A stretch of DNA of 24,000 nucleotides from Crenobacter caeni (GCF_010435965.1 NZ_JAAGAA010000015.1:7842-31841), one strand, 5' to 3'; shown: positions 4,011 through 15,438, counted from the stretch's first letter. Notes: generated by a model from the sequence alone, not told the origin. Numbers and translations: made by a program.

Positions 4011-5255
4011 ATGCGGCACACATCCGGATCCCAAGCCGGGCGCACGCCGGCACCCACCGAGCCTGCGTCGTCGGTGAGACTGTTAACGCTGGCGCCTCAT
4101 CGCGCCGGCTTTTTTCTTGGCGGCAGTGTGCTGCTGCTGGCACTGCTGTGGTGGCTATTGGAGTTGGTCGGACGCAGTTACGGGGTCAGTCTGTCAGAAC
4201 TGCCAGCAAGTTTCTTGCACGGCCAACTGATGTTAAGCGGCTTTTTCCCGCTCTTCATACTGGGATTTATCTACACGGCCGGGCCGAAGTGGCTGAGCGT
4301 CGTACCGCCAGCCACCACTGTGTGGCTGGCGGCCATCTTGCCTTATGCCTTGGGCAGTGTCGGCTTGTTGCTGGCGACGCGCCTGCCTGTGTTATGGCCG
4401 CTTGCCAGTATGCTGCAGGCGCTCGCCTGGCTGTGGGCTTGCCTAATTTGGGGCGGCCGCATTCACGCGAGCACCACACCGGACCGCAAGCACGCATTGC
4501 TGATCTTGGCCGCCTTCGCGCTAGGGGCGGCTGCGCTTGGCTTGTACGCATTCGTTGCAGTGAGCAGGCAATGGCAGCTCGTCCACCATGCGGAGACCCT
4601 GTTGCTGTGGGGGATGTTGCTGCCCGTCTTCCTGATTGTCTGTCATCGCATGTTGCCGTTTTTCTCGGCCAACGTGCTGCAGCCCTACCGGACGTGGCGC
4701 CCCCTCTGGCTGCTGTACGCCATGGTAGGCGGCGCATGGCTGCATGGCCTCATGCACCTGATGGCGCTGCCAAGCTACTTGCTTGATGCCGGGCTGGCTG
4801 GGCTACTGCTGTTTACCAGTTGGCGCTGGCGACTTGCCCGGTCGTTCAAGGTACCGCTCCTTGCCATGCAGCACGTCGCCTTTCTGTGGGCCGGCTTGGG
4901 AATGGTCGTGCTTGTCCTGGAAACTGGGCCTTTCTCAACGCCGATCATCGGCGCAGGCTACGCGGCTTTGCACGCGCTGGCTCTGGGTTTCATGCTGTCG
5001 ATGTTGTTGGCGTTTGTCACCAGGGTGACGCTCGGTCACTCTGGACGGGCGCTGATCGCCAGTCGATTGACGTGGACACTGTTCTGGTGTCTGCAGGCCT
5101 TGACTATGCTGCGCCTGCTGGGGGAGTGGGTGCCCGGCCTGCGCACCCCGCTGTTGCTGGCAACTGCAGTCGGCAGTGTTCTGGTACTGGGGGCGTGGTC
5201 CGCACGTTACATGCCGATGTATACGCAGCCAAGGCCGGATGGGAAAGAAGGATAA
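4011..5255 (+). CDS. nnrS: NnrS-family heme/copper membrane protein (NO-stress associated)
   Basis: The ATG at 4011 lies 5 nt after the ytfE stop. The protein is about 414 aa, polytopic and hydrophobic, with an NnrS-like N-terminal region (APHRAGFFLG...HGQLMLSGFFPLFILGFIYTAGPKWL). Context: downstream of ytfE, with nsrR in the same cluster. Confidence 0.75.
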   Translation: MRHTSGSQAGRTPAPTEPASSVRLLTLAPHRAGFFLGGSVLLLALLWWLLELVGRSYGVSLSELPASFLHGQLMLSGFFPLFILGFIYTAGPKWLSVVPPATTVWLAAILPYALGSVGLLLATRLPVLWPLASMLQALAWLWACLIWGGRIHASTTPDRKHALLILAAFALGAAALGLYAFVAVSRQWQLVHHAETLLLWGMLLPVFLIVCHRMLPFFSANVLQPYRTWRPLWLLYAMVGGAWLHGLMHLMALPSYLLDAGLAGLLLFTSWRWRLARSFKVPLLAMQHVAFLWAGLGMVVLVLETGPFSTPIIGAGYAALHALALGFMLSMLLAFVTRVTLGHSGRALIASRLTWTLFWCLQALTMLRLLGEWVPGLRTPLLLATAVGSVLVLGAWSARYMPMYTQPRPDGKEG

Positions 5256-10195: not shown

Positions 10196-10795
10196 GTGCC
10201 GGTGCACGGACAAGGCCGGGGTGATCGTTTAACGCCCGGCGAGCGATCCCTGTCGGGCGATCTGGCCATGTGGGGACTGATCGTCGCTGAGTTGGCCGTT
10301 TTTGGACTGCTGTTTTTTGCCTATGCCTGGCAGCGGCGCAGCCACGCCGAAGCGTACGCGACAGCACAGGCGACGCTGGCGTTGTGGCCGGCGCTCGTAG
10401 GGACGCTGGGCTTGCTCACTGGCAGCTTCGGTGTCGCGCTGGCCGTGCACGCCTGGTCACAGGGCTGGCACGCGCTGGCGCGCGCGGCGCTTTATCTTGG
10501 CATCGTGTCTGGTGCGGTCTTTATCCTGCTCAAGGGCGCTGACCTGCTGTCGCTTGGCGGTCGGGGCATCAGCCTGTCAAGCGGGGGGTTCTGGACGTTC
10601 TATCTTTTTCTGACTGGCTTTCACTACCTGCACGTGCTGCTGGGCTGGGGCTTACTACTGGTTGTAGCCTGGCGTGCCCGGCGCGGACGCTACGACCACG
10701 GCGACTATTCAGGCGTCGAAACGGTCGCCGCCTATTGGCACATGGTCGACCTGGTCTGGGTTGTCTTGTTCGCACTAATCTATGTCGCACGTTGA
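10196..10795 (+). CDS. norE: NorE, cytochrome c oxidase subunit III-like accessory protein of NO reductase (start uncertain)
   Basis: COX3-family signature (...FWTFYLFLTGFHYLHVLLG...VETVAAYWHMVDLVWVVLFALIYV). The frame is open from 10127. In-frame TTG 10190, GTG 10196 and GTG 10202 lie after the norB stop; I cannot choose among them. Confidence 0.75.
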   Translation: MPVHGQGRGDRLTPGERSLSGDLAMWGLIVAELAVFGLLFFAYAWQRRSHAEAYATAQATLALWPALVGTLGLLTGSFGVALAVHAWSQGWHALARAALYLGIVSGAVFILLKGADLLSLGGRGISLSSGGFWTFYLFLTGFHYLHVLLGWGLLLVVAWRARRGRYDHGDYSGVETVAAYWHMVDLVWVVLFALIYVAR

Positions 10796-10832
10796 TCCGC
10801 GCGTGTCCGATGCTGTCGGCCAGGGGAAAAAA

Positions 10833-11093
10833 ATGGAATCGAAACCTCGGCTGGATTTTCCGCTGTTAAGGCTGATCGTGGTGTTGCTGTTGCTGCTGGG
10901 CTTGTCGCTGGTTCAGGCAGGCGGCGAGCGCGAAGCCTGGCCGATGTCTGTTTTTATGCTTTTTGCCTGGCTCAAGGGCGCGCTGATCGCCGAGTACTTC
11001 ATGGCGCTGGCGTGGGCGCCGTGGGTGTGGCGGCTGCTGATCCACGTCTGGCTGCTGCTGGTTTGTGCCGGGCTTGCCCTGAGCTTCTTCTGA
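10833..11093 (+). CDS. small two/three-TM membrane protein, NorF/NirP-like (prokaryotic cytochrome oxidase subunit IV-like)
   Basis: Hydrophobic ORF containing WLKGALIAEYFMAL, which resembles the K..L....FM.L motif of bacterial subunit IV-like proteins. It sits after norE, as in norEF pairs. The ATG at 10833 has AGGGGA upstream. An alternative ATG at 10782 overlaps the norE stop. Confidence 0.5.
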   Translation: MESKPRLDFPLLRLIVVLLLLLGLSLVQAGGEREAWPMSVFMLFAWLKGALIAEYFMALAWAPWVWRLLIHVWLLLVCAGLALSFF

Positions 11094-11400
11094 GAAATAA
11101 CCGTCAACTACCCCGCCCTGAAGGGCGGAACTTGCTAACCGCGAGCTAGGTTGACCAGGGCGAGCGGATTTCCGAATCCGCTACGTGTGCAACAGGTCGT
11201 TAAGACTTACCAAGGGATGCTTCCTCAGTCCCTTGCTCTAAAAGGATTCGATCATGCTGGCGAAAGGTAAAGCGCCGAAGGTTGTTTCCGCCGCAAAAGC
11301 GGGAGCCGGTTGCGGACATGCCCGAGGAGAGCGAGGCGAAAGCCTCTGTCACAAGGCGCGTAAGCGCAAGATTTAGGAGTAATACGCAGTGAGCGTGTTT
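11094..11400 (+). ncRNA. candidate IscB omega-RNA (HEARO-type RNA); exact 5'/3' ends unknown
   Basis: About 295 nt of non-coding sequence lies immediately 5' of iscB on the same strand, where the omega-RNA lies in characterised IscB loci. It is dense in GC stems. Examples: 11113-11128; 11163-11182 (AGCGGATT-tccg-AATCCGCT); 11211-11235 (CAAGGGA-N11-TCCCTTG); 11333-11346 (GAGGC-GAAA-GCCTC); 11356-11367 (GCGC-GTAA-GCGC); and long-range GTCAAC 11103-11108 with GTTGAC 11150-11155. Confidence 0.6.
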
Positions 11401-12717
11401 GTACTCGATAAACGCAAAAAGCCGCTGATGCCGTGTTCGGAGAAACGCGCCCGCAAGCTGCTGGATGCAGGCCGGGCGGTGGTGGTTCGCGTCGTGCCGT
11501 TCACCATCCGGCTGAAAGACCGCGTGGGCGGGGAAGTCCAGCCGCTTCAGGTCAAACTCGATCCCGGCAGCAAAACCACCGGCATCGCGTTGGTGCGCGT
11601 AGAGGACGAGGCTGATCCTGAAAGCGGAGAGATGCGTCGCACTGTCCATCCGCTGTGGCTCGGCCACTTGCAACATCGCGGCGCAGCCATTCGGGAGGCG
11701 TTGCAGGCGCGACGCGCCTTGCGCCGCCGTCGCCGCAGTCAAAACCTGCGCCATCGTGCGCCACGGTTCGACAATCGCACCAGACCGGAAGGCTGGCTTG
11801 CACCCTCGCTACGGCATCGGCTGGAAACCACGCTGTCGTGGGTGCAACGGCTGTGCCGCTGGACGCCGGTTTCCGCGCTCGCTGTTGAGCGCGTGAGGTT
11901 CGACATGCAGGCGATGCAAAACCCCGAGATTACCGGCGTCGAATACCAGCAAGGCACGCTGCACGGGTACACCGTGCGCGAATACTTGCTGGAAAAATTC
12001 CAGCGCCAGTGCGCGTACTGCGATGCCTCGGACGTTTCCCTGCAAGTCGAGCATGTCCAGCCGCGTGCGCTGGGCGGATCGGATCGCGTCAGCAACCTCG
12101 CACTGGCTTGTCCGCCGTGCAACCAGAAGAAGGCTGCACAGCCGGTCGAAGTATTCCTGGCGAAGCAGCCGGAACGACTGGCCAAGCTGCGCCGGCAACT
12201 GAAGACCCCGTTGCACGACGCGGCTGCGGTCAACAGCACGCGCAATGCCATCGTGCAGGTGTTGCGGAAATCCGGCCTGCCCGTTGAGGCATCGGACGGT
12301 GGCAGAACGAAATACAATCGCCTCGCGCTGTCCGTACCCAAGATATATGCGCTGGATGCAGCCTGTGTCGGCAGAGTTGATGCGATTGGACTCTGGCAGC
12401 GCCCAGTGCTGGGAATCAAAGCCACCGGACGCGGCAGCTACCAGCGCACGCGACTGGATGGTTCGGGTTTCCCGCGTGGCTACCTCACCCGCAGCAAATG
12501 GCATTACGGCTTCCAGACCGGCGACCGGATACGGGCAGAAGTACAGACTGGCAAGAAAGCCGGTTCGTACACGGGGCGTGCGGCAGTTCGCGCCACCGGA
12601 AGTTTCAACATCCAGATTGCCGGTCAGCCGGCTGTACAAGGAATCAACCATCGGCATTGCCGGCTGATCCAGCGTGCGGACGGCTACGGTTACGCTTTTC
12701 AACCAAAGGCTGCTTAG
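11389..12717 (+). CDS. iscB: IscB, RNA-guided RuvC/HNH endonuclease (OMEGA system effector, Cas9 ancestor; RRXRR/HNH family)
   Basis: GTG start at 11389 with AGGAG at 11373-11377. Motifs: PLMP (KPLMPC, aa 11-16); RuvC-I KLDPGSKTTGIAL (D58); Arg-rich bridge helix RRALRRRRRSQNLRHRAPRFDNRTRPEGWL; RuvC-II AVERVRFD (E167). The HNH insert is CAYC...VEHVQP...SNLALACPPCNQKK (C208, C211, H222, N236, C241, C244). RuvC-III-like PKIYALDAACVG follows. The C-terminus GFQTGDRIRA...GSYTGRAAVRATGSFNI is TID-like. Confidence 0.9.
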   Translation: MSVFVLDKRKKPLMPCSEKRARKLLDAGRAVVVRVVPFTIRLKDRVGGEVQPLQVKLDPGSKTTGIALVRVEDEADPESGEMRRTVHPLWLGHLQHRGAAIREALQARRALRRRRRSQNLRHRAPRFDNRTRPEGWLAPSLRHRLETTLSWVQRLCRWTPVSALAVERVRFDMQAMQNPEITGVEYQQGTLHGYTVREYLLEKFQRQCAYCDASDVSLQVEHVQPRALGGSDRVSNLALACPPCNQKKAAQPVEVFLAKQPERLAKLRRQLKTPLHDAAAVNSTRNAIVQVLRKSGLPVEASDGGRTKYNRLALSVPKIYALDAACVGRVDAIGLWQRPVLGIKATGRGSYQRTRLDGSGFPRGYLTRSKWHYGFQTGDRIRAEVQTGKKAGSYTGRAAVRATGSFNIQIAGQPAVQGINHRHCRLIQRADGYGYAFQPKAA

Positions 12718-12752
12718 AGAAAGGAGAGCGGGTACAGGGAGCAGTCCAGCAT

Positions 12753-12800
12753 CGACGCCTGAGGCGTCGGCGCTATCCCTCCCCGGCATGAATGCCGGGG
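12753..12800 (+). repeat. two hairpins in the right-end region of the IscB element
   Basis: CGACGCC-tga-GGCGTCG (12753-12769) and CCCCGGCA-tgaa-TGCCGGGG (12781-12800). Neither is followed by a T-run, so they do not look like intrinsic terminators. The second is homologous to the hairpin at 7161-7178. Confidence 0.6.
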
Positions 12801-12816
12801 CTTCCCGCGCAAACTG

Positions 12817-13617
12817 ATGAATGCATTGCTTGAAATAATCCCGGCGCCGCCTTTTTACCAGAGTGTCGGTCGCGAGTGCGAGGTCTTTACTGCAGCATTC
12901 GAGGCGCGGCTGCCGGTACTGATCAAGGGGCCGACCGGTTGCGGAAAAACCCGTTTCGTCAGCCACATGGCCGAGCAGCTGGGGCTGACGCTGCATACCG
13001 TTGCCTGCCATGATGACCTGACCGCGGCCGACCTGGTCGGGCGGCACTTGATCACTGGCGGCGACACGGTCTGGGTTGACGGCCCGCTGACCCGTGCCGT
13101 GCGCAGCGGTGGTATCTGTTACCTTGACGAAGTGGTCGAGGCACGCAAGGACACGACGGTGGTCCTGCACCCGCTGACCGACGACCGGCGGATCCTGCCG
13201 ATCGAGCGCACGGGCGAGTTGTTGCACGCGCATCCTGACTTCATGCTGGTGGTGTCGTACAACCCCGGCTACCAGCATGTGCTGAAGACGCTCAAACCGT
13301 CGACGCGGCAACGTTTTGTCGCGTTGTCGTTCAATTTTGCCAGCCCCGAACTCGAGCGATCGGTACTGGTGACCGAGACCGGACTGGACGCCGGGCGCGC
13401 CGCCAGCCTGGTTACGCTCGCCGGACAAATCCGCCGCCTTGCCGGCGTCGACCTTGAAGAAGCTGTCAGCACCCGTTTGCTGGTCTACGCCGCGCGGTTG
13501 ATGGTCGCCGGCATGGACGAACGTGTCGCCTGCCGCGCCGCGCTGGTCGAGCCGCTGAGTGACGAGGAAGACACGCTCGCCGCCCTTGAGACCATCATCG
13601 CCGCCCAGTTCGGTTAA
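12817..13617 (+). CDS. norQ: NorQ/NirQ (CbbQ/MoxR-type AAA+ ATPase) NO reductase maturation factor
   Basis: Walker A PVLIKGPTGCGKTRFV and Walker B ICYLDEVVEA. The protein is 266 aa and norD follows. The ATG at 12817 has no SD and lies inside sequence homologous to the second right-end copy. Confidence 0.9.
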   Translation: MNALLEIIPAPPFYQSVGRECEVFTAAFEARLPVLIKGPTGCGKTRFVSHMAEQLGLTLHTVACHDDLTAADLVGRHLITGGDTVWVDGPLTRAVRSGGICYLDEVVEARKDTTVVLHPLTDDRRILPIERTGELLHAHPDFMLVVSYNPGYQHVLKTLKPSTRQRFVALSFNFASPELERSVLVTETGLDAGRAASLVTLAGQIRRLAGVDLEEAVSTRLLVYAARLMVAGMDERVACRAALVEPLSDEEDTLAALETIIAAQFG

Positions 13618-13626
13618 GGAGTCGCA

Positions 13627-15438
13627 GTGGAAGATACCGTCGGTAAGTGGTGGGACCGCCTGATCCGGCGAGTCGCGCGGCGTAGCTACCCACAAGCGGC
13701 GGTGACGCTGGAACAGGTCGAGCGGCTGGCACCCGTATTTTTTCGTGCATTGGGCGGTAGCAGCGCGCTGACGCTCAAGAGTGCCGTGGGCAGTCAGCAC
13801 GGCGCGCGGCGACGGTTTATCGAGCGTATTGCCGGTATCGGTGAGCGCGCCGAATTCGCCTGGGCCGATGACCATTCGTTTTTCCTGCCGGCGACCATGG
13901 ACGCGTTTGCTTCGCCGGACCTGAACCGTGACGTCTACCTGTGGCTGATCGCCTTGCTGGCGTTCGACGGTGGCGAGGCGTCGTGGTTCGAGCGCAACGT
14001 GCTGGCCAGCCGGCGCGTGTTAGCCGCGCTGCCGGGCTTTGTGCCGCTTTACCGGCGCTTGGTCGCCGCGCACCTGGCCCAGCGTGCGCCAGCGCCAGCG
14101 CCGGCCGCCGCTTTTGAGCACGCGCTGCGCCGGCAACTGACTGACACTGCGGCCGCCCTGGCCTGGTCCGGCCCGGTGCCGGCGCACGAGCCGGTGCCGC
14201 TCTGGTTGCACCCGTCAGCACCGGCCGAAGGTGCCGCCGCTGCGCCTAGGTCGGCACAGGACAACGCCGGTGGTAAAAGCCAGGACGGCAAACGCCGCCG
14301 GCGTTACCGGACGCGCCGTGAAACGCCGGACGAGCGGTGCAACGGCATGCTTCTGGTATTCCGTGCCGAGAGCATTTTCACCTGGGACGAGTACGTAAAA
14401 GTCAATCGACACCAGGACGAGGACGACGGCGACAGCTGCGCCAGCGCCGCCGAGGACATGGATCGGCTGACGCTGGCGGACGGCACGACCAAAGCCGGAC
14501 GCTTGCGCTTCGACCTTGACCTGCCCGCGGCCGCCTACGATGACACGCCGCTTGGCCCCGGCATCCTGTTGCCGGAGTGGCACTGGCGGCAGCAAAGGCT
14601 GGTGCCGGCACACTGCCACCTAAAACCGATGTACCCGGCCAGCGTGGTGGCACAGCCGCTGCCGGAGCATTTGCGCCGGACGGCACGCAGCCTGCGGCGC
14701 CAGTTTCAGGCACTGGCGCCTGAGCGGCAGCGGCGCAGTGGTGAAATGGACGGGCCGCAGATCGACCTTGACCGGCTGATTGCGTTTTTGAGCGAGCGCC
14801 GGCACGGCAATGTCAACGCCGAACCGGCGCTGTACCAGGCGTGGCCGCGTGCTGCGCGCTCGCTGGCATGCCTGACGCTGGCCGATTTGTCGTTGTCCAC
14901 CGAGAGTTGGGCGGGGAGTGCCGGGCGGGTAATCGACGTGATCCGCGATAGCCTGCTGCTGTTTGGCGAAGCACTCGACGCGTGCGGCGACGCGTTTGGC
15001 GTCTACGGCTTTTCCTCGATCCGGCGCAGTGAAGTGCGCTACCTGCTGCTTAAGGACTTCAGCGGCCCGTGGGATGACCTGGCGCGCGGCCGCATCATGG
15101 CGCTGCGGCCGGGCTACTACACCCGGCTGGGTGCCGCCATTCGCCATTCGGCTTCCATCCTGGCCGGCCAGCCGGCAGCGCGCAAACTGCTGTTGATCTT
15201 GTCTGACGGCAAGCCGAACGACCTGGACCATTACGAAGGCCGCTACGGCATCGAGGACACGCGCCAGGCTGTGCTCGAAGCGCGCCGTGCCGGGCTGGTG
15301 CCGTTTTGCGTTACCGTCGACGCCGAGGGGAGCGAGTATCTGCCGCACCTGTTCGGTGCCAACGGCTACGTCGTCGTCACGGACCCACGTCGGCTGCCTG
15401 CGGTGCTGACCCGGCTGTACAGCACGCTGACGCGCTAG
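13627..15438 (+). CDS. norD: NorD, von Willebrand factor A-domain NO reductase activation protein
   Basis: GTG at 13627 with AAGGAG at 13615-13620. The protein is 603 aa with a C-terminal VWA domain (...LLLILSDGKPNDLDHYEGRYGIEDTRQAV...VPFCVTVD...). It pairs with norQ. Confidence 0.9.
   Translation: MEDTVGKWWDRLIRRVARRSYPQAAVTLEQVERLAPVFFRALGGSSALTLKSAVGSQHGARRRFIERIAGIGERAEFAWADDHSFFLPATMDAFASPDLNRDVYLWLIALLAFDGGEASWFERNVLASRRVLAALPGFVPLYRRLVAAHLAQRAPAPAPAAAFEHALRRQLTDTAAALAWSGPVPAHEPVPLWLHPSAPAEGAAAAPRSAQDNAGGKSQDGKRRRRYRTRRETPDERCNGMLLVFRAESIFTWDEYVKVNRHQDEDDGDSCASAAEDMDRLTLADGTTKAGRLRFDLDLPAAAYDDTPLGPGILLPEWHWRQQRLVPAHCHLKPMYPASVVAQPLPEHLRRTARSLRRQFQALAPERQRRSGEMDGPQIDLDRLIAFLSERRHGNVNAEPALYQAWPRAARSLACLTLADLSLSTESWAGSAGRVIDVIRDSLLLFGEALDACGDAFGVYGFSSIRRSEVRYLLLKDFSGPWDDLARGRIMALRPGYYTRLGAAIRHSASILAGQPAARKLLLILSDGKPNDLDHYEGRYGIEDTRQAVLEARRAGLVPFCVTVDAEGSEYLPHLFGANGYVVVTDPRRLPAVLTRLYSTLTR

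Follow-up and report, generated by a model that had tools for sequence, protein, structure and literature searches.

The nor operon of Crenobacter caeni raises the question of what the 1.7-kb segment between norF and norQ is, and how it came to be there. We analysed a window of 24,000 nucleotides (GCF_010435965.1, NZ_JAAGAA010000015.1:7842-31841; the term refers to this whole stretch, and positions are counted from its first letter), for which an initial annotation had proposed a stand-alone element encoding the RNA-guided nuclease IscB. We conclude with high confidence that the insert at 11103-12816 is a non-autonomous element of the IS200/IS605 type (ISC), which contains an omegaRNA gene and iscB only, and which was acquired by the Crenobacter caeni lineage at the norF-norQ junction, after the stop codon of the former and before the start codon of the latter. 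It is one more of the well-known small mobile elements with an RNA-guided DNA-cutting enzyme, IscB, the ancestor of Cas9. The element and the hairpins at its ends are as follows:

11103..12816, + strand: whole mobile element of 1,714 bp, comprising the omegaRNA gene, iscB, and a 99-nt right-end region
11113..11128, no strand assigned: left subterminal hairpin CCGCCC-TGAA-GGGCGG, 10 nt inside the left boundary, with covarying pairs in alignment columns 11-26
12781..12800, no strand assigned: right subterminal hairpin CCCCGGCA-TGAA-TGCCGGGG, 16 nt inside the right boundary

The limits of the element were determined by alignment with related copies. On the right, similarity to two Craterilacuibacter copies with unrelated flanks (L001 and L002) ceases at ...CGCGCAAACTG, which places the boundary at 12816. 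On the left, conservation begins with GTCAAC in more than 60 loci and the three preceding bases are variable, which places the boundary at 11103. A left end at 11100 (ACCGTCA, common to L002) was discarded, because 60 other loci are conserved only from GTCAAC onward. The limits given in the initial annotation, 11094 and 12823, were thus 9 nt and 7 nt off. The sequence GAAATAA, found at 11094-11100 and again at 12831-12837, was rejected as a target-site duplication: it lies off the mapped ends, is missing from other copies, and is therefore a chance repeat. This pair, located just outside both ends, may have shaped the earlier coordinates.

The mapped ends show neither terminal inverted repeats nor a target-site duplication; the flanks read AACC on the left and ATGAAT on the right. 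The similar hairpins near both ends that had been reported are present. The left one is a stem of the omegaRNA. It is also the putative TnpA-binding hairpin of the right end (RE) of the transposon, which in iscB elements is the end on the side of the omegaRNA (Meers et al., 10.1101/2023.03.14.532601). The right one, which folds as bottom-strand single-stranded DNA with a z-score of -3.9 and has a conserved equivalent in related copies, is its putative TnpA-binding counterpart at the left end (LE) of the transposon, on the bottom strand. Subterminal hairpins combined with the lack of terminal inverted repeats and of a target duplication constitute the IS200/IS605 layout; together with the HEARO RNA partner and the one-sided target motif described below, they bear out the proposal of an RNA-guided nuclease borne by such an element. 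The TGAA loops of the two hairpins (11119-11122 and 12789-12792) are identical to the core bases of the target motif, aTGAAt; viewed on the bottom strand, the loops read TTCA and the target TTCAT.

A scan of 26 open reading frames (ORFs) from across the window gave no match to Y1_Tnp (TnpA), and such a gene would not fit into the element, which is thus non-autonomous. Most IscB/HEARO loci likewise lack a nearby TnpA (PMC9755519; PMC13565253). The window was also correctly described as having no CRISPR array, no cas1 or cas2, and no tnpA.

The window represents a denitrification and nitric oxide-response island, with genes for an Rrf2 regulator, hemerythrin/ScdA, NnrS, NorC, NorB, and NorE-like and NorF-like proteins, followed by the element and then by genes for NorQ, NorD, NirS, NirF, and heme-d1 functions. 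The element is co-directional with norF and norQ and lies flush against the norQ start codon, splitting norCBEF from norQD as had been claimed. Four relatives from other genera (L083-L086), including Paludibacterium and Aquitalea, have the order norC-B-E-F-Q-D without IscB; their NorQ proteins are 73-77% identical to that of the window. In these relatives, the norF stop is separated from the norQ ATG by 9-11 nt, and norQ starts with ATGAACGC (M-N-A) at the uninterrupted junctions. When positions 11103-12816 are deleted in silico, the result is the norF TGA, 9 nt, and ATGAATGCA (M-N-A), the layout seen in L085 and L086. Since the relatives are uninterrupted and the deletion restores their layout, the segment was gained by insertion, and the ATGAA on its right belongs to the native norQ. 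The predicted unoccupied C. caeni norF-norQ junction is CTTCTGAGAAATAACCATGAATGC. The comparison with related nor clusters that the initial annotation had proposed therefore located an empty site, in L083-L086. Crenobacter luteus was rejected as an empty-site comparator, since its norQD is at a different locus from norCBEF. In that species (L081, SLXG01000002.1), norQ-norD is found behind a divergent SBP_bac_3 gene, and the nor order varies within the genus.

In the relatives, the norF stop is overlapped by a Shine-Dalgarno-like sequence, from which the insertion has moved norQ 1.7 kb away; none is present in the 20 nt before the norQ ATG at 12817. The insertion deprives norQ, which is required to activate nitric oxide reductase, of its native ribosome-binding site. 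The NorQ encoded in the window is 100% identical to a C. caeni protein. The C. caeni NorQ in NCBI (P0121, 263 amino acids (aa)) starts at TTG 12826, three codons after ATG 12817, although NorQ of the relatives begins with M-N-A, as does the reading from ATG 12817.

The protein-coding part of the element consists of the following:

11389..12717, + strand: iscB, 442 aa, GTG start, stop TAG at 12715-12717
12346..12348, + strand: codon TAT for Tyr320, which takes the place of the RuvC-III catalytic histidine, three residues before D323

The 442-aa ORF is present exactly as had been stated, GTG start included, and is preceded by a Shine-Dalgarno sequence, AGGAG, read at 11375-11379. Profile searches, which had been suggested as a check, place the protein in the IscB family. 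Pfam RRXRR (PF14239) matched residues 3-189 with E = 2.8e-72 over the full model, Pfam HNH (PF01844) matched residues 208-249 with E = 6e-11, and the NCBIfam equivalog NF040563 (guided_IscB, "RNA-guided endonuclease IscB") scored 430.2 bits against a cutoff of 175. The "full IscB architecture" described earlier stands as far as all the listed motifs and domains are concerned, and fails in the catalytic tetrad, which is incomplete at Y320, a point that the initial annotation had overlooked. The N-terminal motif KPLMPC (P12-L13-M14-P15 in conserved columns), RuvC-I LDPGSKTTG with D58, an Arg-rich bridge helix stretch, RuvC-II AVERVRFD with E167, and RuvC-III ALDAACVG with D323 are all present in the translation. 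The HNH residues C208/C211, H222, N236, C241/C244, and N245 match invariant or near-invariant columns, and the IscB motifs generally fall in columns that are invariant or nearly so across 120 homologues.

Comparison with characterised IscBs gave the same answer. Solved IscBs in the PDB, including TbaIscB, OgeuIscB, and HfmIscB, align with the window protein with E-values down to 1e-35. An AlphaFold2 model was built on 43 sequences and without RNA (predicted local distance difference test score, 73.8). The top 10 PDB matches of this model in Foldseek (E = 1e-20 to 1e-12) were all IscB- or IsrB-omegaRNA-DNA complexes; Cas9d and Cas9 ranked next. The template modelling scores were only about 0.4, for a multi-domain protein modelled without its RNA. 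The predicted structure thus has the IscB fold, including the C-terminal WED/target-adjacent motif (TAM)-interacting region.

Homologues align over 99-100% of the IscB length, and the family is large, with at least 7,995 proteins at E <= 1e-20, many of which are already named IscB by NCBI. The nearest homologues, at 85-86% identity, are encoded in a Craterilacuibacter metagenome-assembled genome (MAG). The pairwise ratio of nonsynonymous to synonymous substitution rates (dN/dS) of iscB and its nearest copies is 0.13-0.15, which indicates purifying selection. The number of unique amino-acid changes in the window lineage (25) shows no excess over the two sister copies (22 and 26). At highly conserved columns, the window protein deviates in 6 of 176 cases, and 12 of the 120 homologues deviate as often. 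These figures rule out general decay of the ORF. Decayed iscB copies do occur elsewhere: early stops leave 74, 80, and 356 aa in L044, L047, and L064, whose hosts are Ectothiorhodospira, Sulfobacillus, and a Pseudomonadota MAG, and the element ends are recognisable in all three.

The following RNA and target features, some of them outside the element, were assigned:

11087..11102, + strand: predicted omegaRNA guide CTTCTGAGAAATAACC, 16 nt, derived from the flank and spanning the norF stop TGA at 11091-11093
11103..11337, + strand: omegaRNA scaffold (Rfam HEARO, RF02033), 93.7 bits, model positions 1-211 of 211
11333..11367, + strand: two extra omegaRNA 3' hairpins, GAGGC-GAAA-GCCTC and GCGC-GTAA-GCGC, beyond the Rfam model
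12817..12822, + strand: ATGAAT, the native norQ start codon and the next 3 nt; predicted TAM; TTCAT on the bottom strand is the transposon target motif

The structured non-coding region that had been noticed before the ORF is a HEARO RNA, the RNA now known as the IscB omegaRNA (Meers et al., 10.1101/2023.03.14.532601; PMC13565253). The match at 11103-11337 exceeds the gathering score (93.7 against 83 bits; E = 2.9e-18), and the upstream non-coding region folds with a z-score of -2.9. A HEARO match was found at the equivalent place in all 18 relatives tested, at 90-122 bits, and in an alignment of the 19 copies, compensatory changes were observed at 48 of the 78 predicted pairs. The Rfam model does not include downstream omegaRNA elements (Meers et al., 10.1101/2023.03.14.532601). 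Two such GNRA-capped hairpins, at 11333-11346 and 11356-11367, are supported here by covariation in the consensus (columns 264-277 and 290-301) and by single-sequence folding.

The flank directly 5' of the scaffold differs in every copy. Since IscB omegaRNAs carry a guide of 16-17 nt at their 5' end (PMC9640706), the guide in this case would be 11087-11102. No second target of this guide was found in the window at up to three mismatches. The TAM of IscB is located 3' of the target (PMC9640706; PMC11666462), and the ATGA at the right junction fits the NNRR core of the OgeuIscB TAM described in the same papers. No sigma-70-like promoter or terminator above background was detected in 10700-13000. 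Having no detectable promoter of its own, the element probably owes its transcription to read-through from the nor operon. This agrees with the reported preference of IscB elements for a co-directional position behind a host gene, from which they are read through (Meers et al., 10.1101/2023.03.14.532601). With its exact ends, predicted guide and TAM, and reconstructed empty site, the locus can serve as a worked example.

These features suggest how the element may be retained. Read-through from the nor operon would produce a transcript yielding the omegaRNA, the 5' 16 nt of which (CTTCTGAGAAATAACC) would be supplied by the flanking norF end, and IscB would bind this RNA. Should TnpA acting in trans excise the element, the rejoined site, CTTCTGAGAAATAACC followed directly by ATGAAT, would match the guide with the TAM adjoining, and could be cut by IscB. 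The resident copy would not be a target, because the guide match in the occupied locus is followed by GTCAAC and not by a TAM. Such a retention mechanism was demonstrated experimentally for related elements (Meers et al., 10.1101/2023.03.14.532601).

The capacity of the window copy for the cutting step is put in doubt by the residue at position 320. In an alignment of the window protein and its 120 homologues, column 320 contains 119 histidines, one tyrosine (that of the window), and one proline. The codon is CAC in L001 and CAT in L002, the nearest copies, and TAT in the window, a single C-to-T change. A Thr-to-Ile change adjoining Y320 is likewise unique to the window protein. Substitution of the equivalent histidine in Cas9 (H983A) abolishes RuvC cutting. 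In solved IscBs, Y320 aligns with the histidine of PKDHYLDAYCI and PKTHMNDA, and the RuvC catalytic residues of OgeuIscB are D61, E193, H340, and D343 (PMC9640706). The D-E-H-D tetrad of the window protein is therefore incomplete, with D58, E167, and D323 kept and the histidine replaced, while the HNH residues are intact. The initial annotation had named the alignment of the catalytic D/E/H positions as one test of the assignment; D58, E167, and D323 align, and the tyrosine in place of the RuvC histidine speaks partly against it. The substitution lowers predicted activity and leaves family membership unaffected.

A RuvC-dead IscB (D61A) is an HNH nickase (PMC11666462). By analogy, cutting of the non-target strand has probably been lost or much weakened in the window copy, which would at best be a nickase of the target strand through its HNH domain. 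Y320 is most simply read as a single, recent mutation of the RuvC site. It might also mark a natural nickase variant, and is of specialist interest for this reason, as a naturally occurring replacement of His by Tyr at the RuvC site of an IscB that is otherwise constrained.

The position of the insert was compared with that of related copies whose right end could be detected, at 47 loci from the set L001-L064. The right junction is ATG in 43 of the 47, ATGA in 41, and ATGAA in 29. In 34 of the 47 loci, an ORF of 80 codons or more begins at the junction ATG, as against 26% (298 of 1,144) of the other ATGA sites in the same loci (binomial p about 4e-11). The left flanks of the copies are mutually unrelated, as are the genes downstream of the junctions, which are co-directional with the element and, judged by N-terminal sequences only, resemble MiaB, HisG, HisC, PheT, and an epimerase (candidate names). 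Selection by itself should account for some of this bias, since ATGA sites within genes are disruptive. There is probably no nor-specific reason for the location studied here; ATGA at a start codon is the usual target of the clade.

In some copies, the junction also bears on iscB itself. The iscB stop overlaps the junction ATG, as TGATG or TAATG, in 9 of the 43 loci (L012, L017, L018, L023, L026, L027, L029, L033, and L035), and is the TGA of the junction ATGA in another 8 (L015, L016, L021, L031, L037, L041, L045, and L056). The IscBs with such overlaps are of a long form, about 454-472 aa, and in L028, iscB continues in frame into the host gene (963 aa). At these stop/start overlaps, translation of the host gene could be coupled to that of iscB. 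The window copy is of another class, its iscB stop being 100 nt upstream of the junction. The TGA at that junction (12815-12817) was rejected as the end of the window iscB, since it is in another frame and the stop is TAG at 12715-12717. We tentatively suggest that the clade may specialise in docking on gene starts: its ATGA target and TAM would bring it to the 5' edge of co-directional genes, where it would ride on operon transcription, with target bases supplying the iscB stop in about 40% of the copies and the nor insertion being one instance. This siting at start codons and the stop/start overlaps bear on how such elements stay harmless and expressed.

The 2009 HEARO paper by Weinberg et al. 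reportedly notes insertion next to ATGA or GTGA, and the TAM of AwaIscB is said to be ATGA, which would match the window motif. We therefore do not claim the docking patterns as new, and searches of literature full text for HEARO with ATGA and for IscB with start codons returned nothing relevant. In one locus, L013, the junction ATG at 4402 is followed after about 150 nt by a SECIS_3 element (RF01989) at 4549-4607, which scores 66.6 bits (gathering score, 63). The 50-codon ORF at this junction probably ends at a selenocysteine UGA, in which case the IscB element would be located at the beginning of a selenoprotein gene.

Several observations weigh against the interpretation of the nor insert as a mobile IscB element, or against parts of it. 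The empty site was reconstructed solely from other genera, whose NorQ is only 73-77% identical; a search for an empty allele of the same species, in which metagenomes were scanned for the junction predicted without the insert and for the norQ 5' end, gave 0 matches. The window contains no TnpA that would support current mobility. The HEARO score of 93.7 is near the bottom of the range of its relatives (90-122 bits). Guide length, TAM, and transcription are carried over from relatives, and Y320 argues against full double-strand cleavage by the window copy.

It is unlikely that the window copy is a fully active double-strand nuclease and a normal homing element despite Y320, the tyrosine being tolerated or a sequencing or assembly error. 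The rest of iscB is under normal constraint, as judged by dN/dS (0.13-0.15), the unique changes (25 against 22 and 26), and the deviation at just 6 of 176 highly conserved columns, matched by 12 of the 120 homologues; the omegaRNA is complete, and the change from His to Tyr requires a single C-to-T substitution. However, 119 of the 120 homologues have histidine, tyrosine is found in the window protein alone of the 121 aligned, the adjoining Thr-to-Ile change is also unique, and loss of the corresponding histidine in Cas9 H983A eliminates RuvC cutting. Residue 320 is, moreover, one of the four named RuvC catalytic residues (PMC9640706). A second reading, in which the element is an immobile relic that has a crippled nuclease and no transposase in the genome, travels as a passenger in the nor transcript, and will decay, is a lesser possibility that deserves more weight. 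It would agree with the absence of tnpA from the window, with the rarity of TnpA near IscB/HEARO loci in general (PMC9755519; PMC13565253), with Y320, and with the early stops in the decayed family copies L044, L047, and L064. Yet the ORF is intact with no signal of relaxed selection in the window lineage, the omegaRNA and both end hairpins are intact, and the absence of tnpA is established for the window only.

A catalytic-site substitution within an otherwise constrained gene, located in an operon of a denitrification and nitric oxide-response island, might also bring to mind host co-option, in which the RuvC-disabled IscB and its RNA would act as a nickase or DNA-binding factor in nor or denitrification expression, by analogy with nuclease-dead TnpB-derived regulators. 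The domestication of TnpB into RNA-guided transcription factors is a precedent for this idea (10.1101/2023.11.30.569447). We consider it very improbable: the guide matches only its own flank, with no second target in the window within three mismatches; the HNH domain is intact, so that the protein is not nuclease-dead; related nor operons lack the insert; the ATGA/start-codon habit of the clade explains the location; and the substitution is confined to the window copy rather than clade-wide. Least probable, to the point of being negligible, is a remnant or minimal type II CRISPR-Cas system. The NCBIfam Cas9d model NF049971 does match the HNH region (E = 2.7e-7), and Cas9 folds appear at Foldseek rank 11 and lower, but the Cas9d score is 29.6 bits against a cutoff of 375, the REC (recognition) lobe is missing, the IscB equivalog model is passed, and the RNA is HEARO. 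A profile scan of the window ORFs revealed no cas genes, including cas1 and cas2, and the window contains no repeat array. The type II origin is thus refuted, and the insert is best regarded as a non-autonomous IS200/IS605-type element carrying iscB and its omegaRNA.

Its closest known counterparts are the IscB-omegaRNA (OMEGA) elements of the IS200/IS605/ISC group, such as those of OgeuIscB (PDB 7UTN and 7XHT), AwaIscB of Allochromatium, and G. stearothermophilus (Meers et al.). The domain order is that of known IscBs (PLMP, RuvC-I, bridge helix, RuvC-II, HNH, RuvC-III, and the C-terminal WED/TAM-interacting region). Further common traits are the same-strand upstream HEARO-type omegaRNA, the guide (here predicted to derive from the flank), a 3' NNRR-type motif beside the other end, the subterminal hairpins, the co-oriented upstream host gene, and the lack of tnpA, which most ISC members do not carry either. 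Identity to the window protein is 64-67% for Allochromatium IscBs; OgeuIscB differs in having histidine (H340) where the window protein has tyrosine and shares about 20% identity across the structural alignment. By itself, one more such element carries little weight: the biochemistry and structure of IscB-omegaRNA elements have been characterised, NCBI names them automatically, and their close homologues number in the thousands.

The HEARO motif of Weinberg et al. 2009 is said to have been named after its HNH-endonuclease ORF, and the arrangement in the window, a full-length RF02033 match above the gathering score followed by such an ORF, conforms to it. Compared with the Rfam model, the functional omegaRNA would be longer, with the 5' guide and the two 3' hairpins at 11333-11367. 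TnpB-omegaRNA systems (IS605/IS607) resemble the element in that a transposon-borne nuclease uses a guide that reads the flank and a TAM identical to the transposon target motif. However, TnpB is a single-RuvC, Cas12-like protein whose omegaRNA is at the 3' end of its gene and whose TAM is 5' of the target, and no TnpB is present here. Cas9 and Cas9d share the split RuvC with an inserted HNH, the Arg-rich bridge helix, and detectable fold similarity; in contrast to them, the element has no REC lobe, CRISPR array, tracrRNA, cas1, or cas2, and its guide would come from the transposon flank. A search of the window for CRISPR arrays returned only two short tandem repeats, both inside norD. These repeats, at 14010-14071 and 14307-14344, are imperfect, with periods of 20 and 19 and two to three copies each; they are not CRISPR-like, and resemble coding-sequence repeats in a low-complexity linker of NorD.

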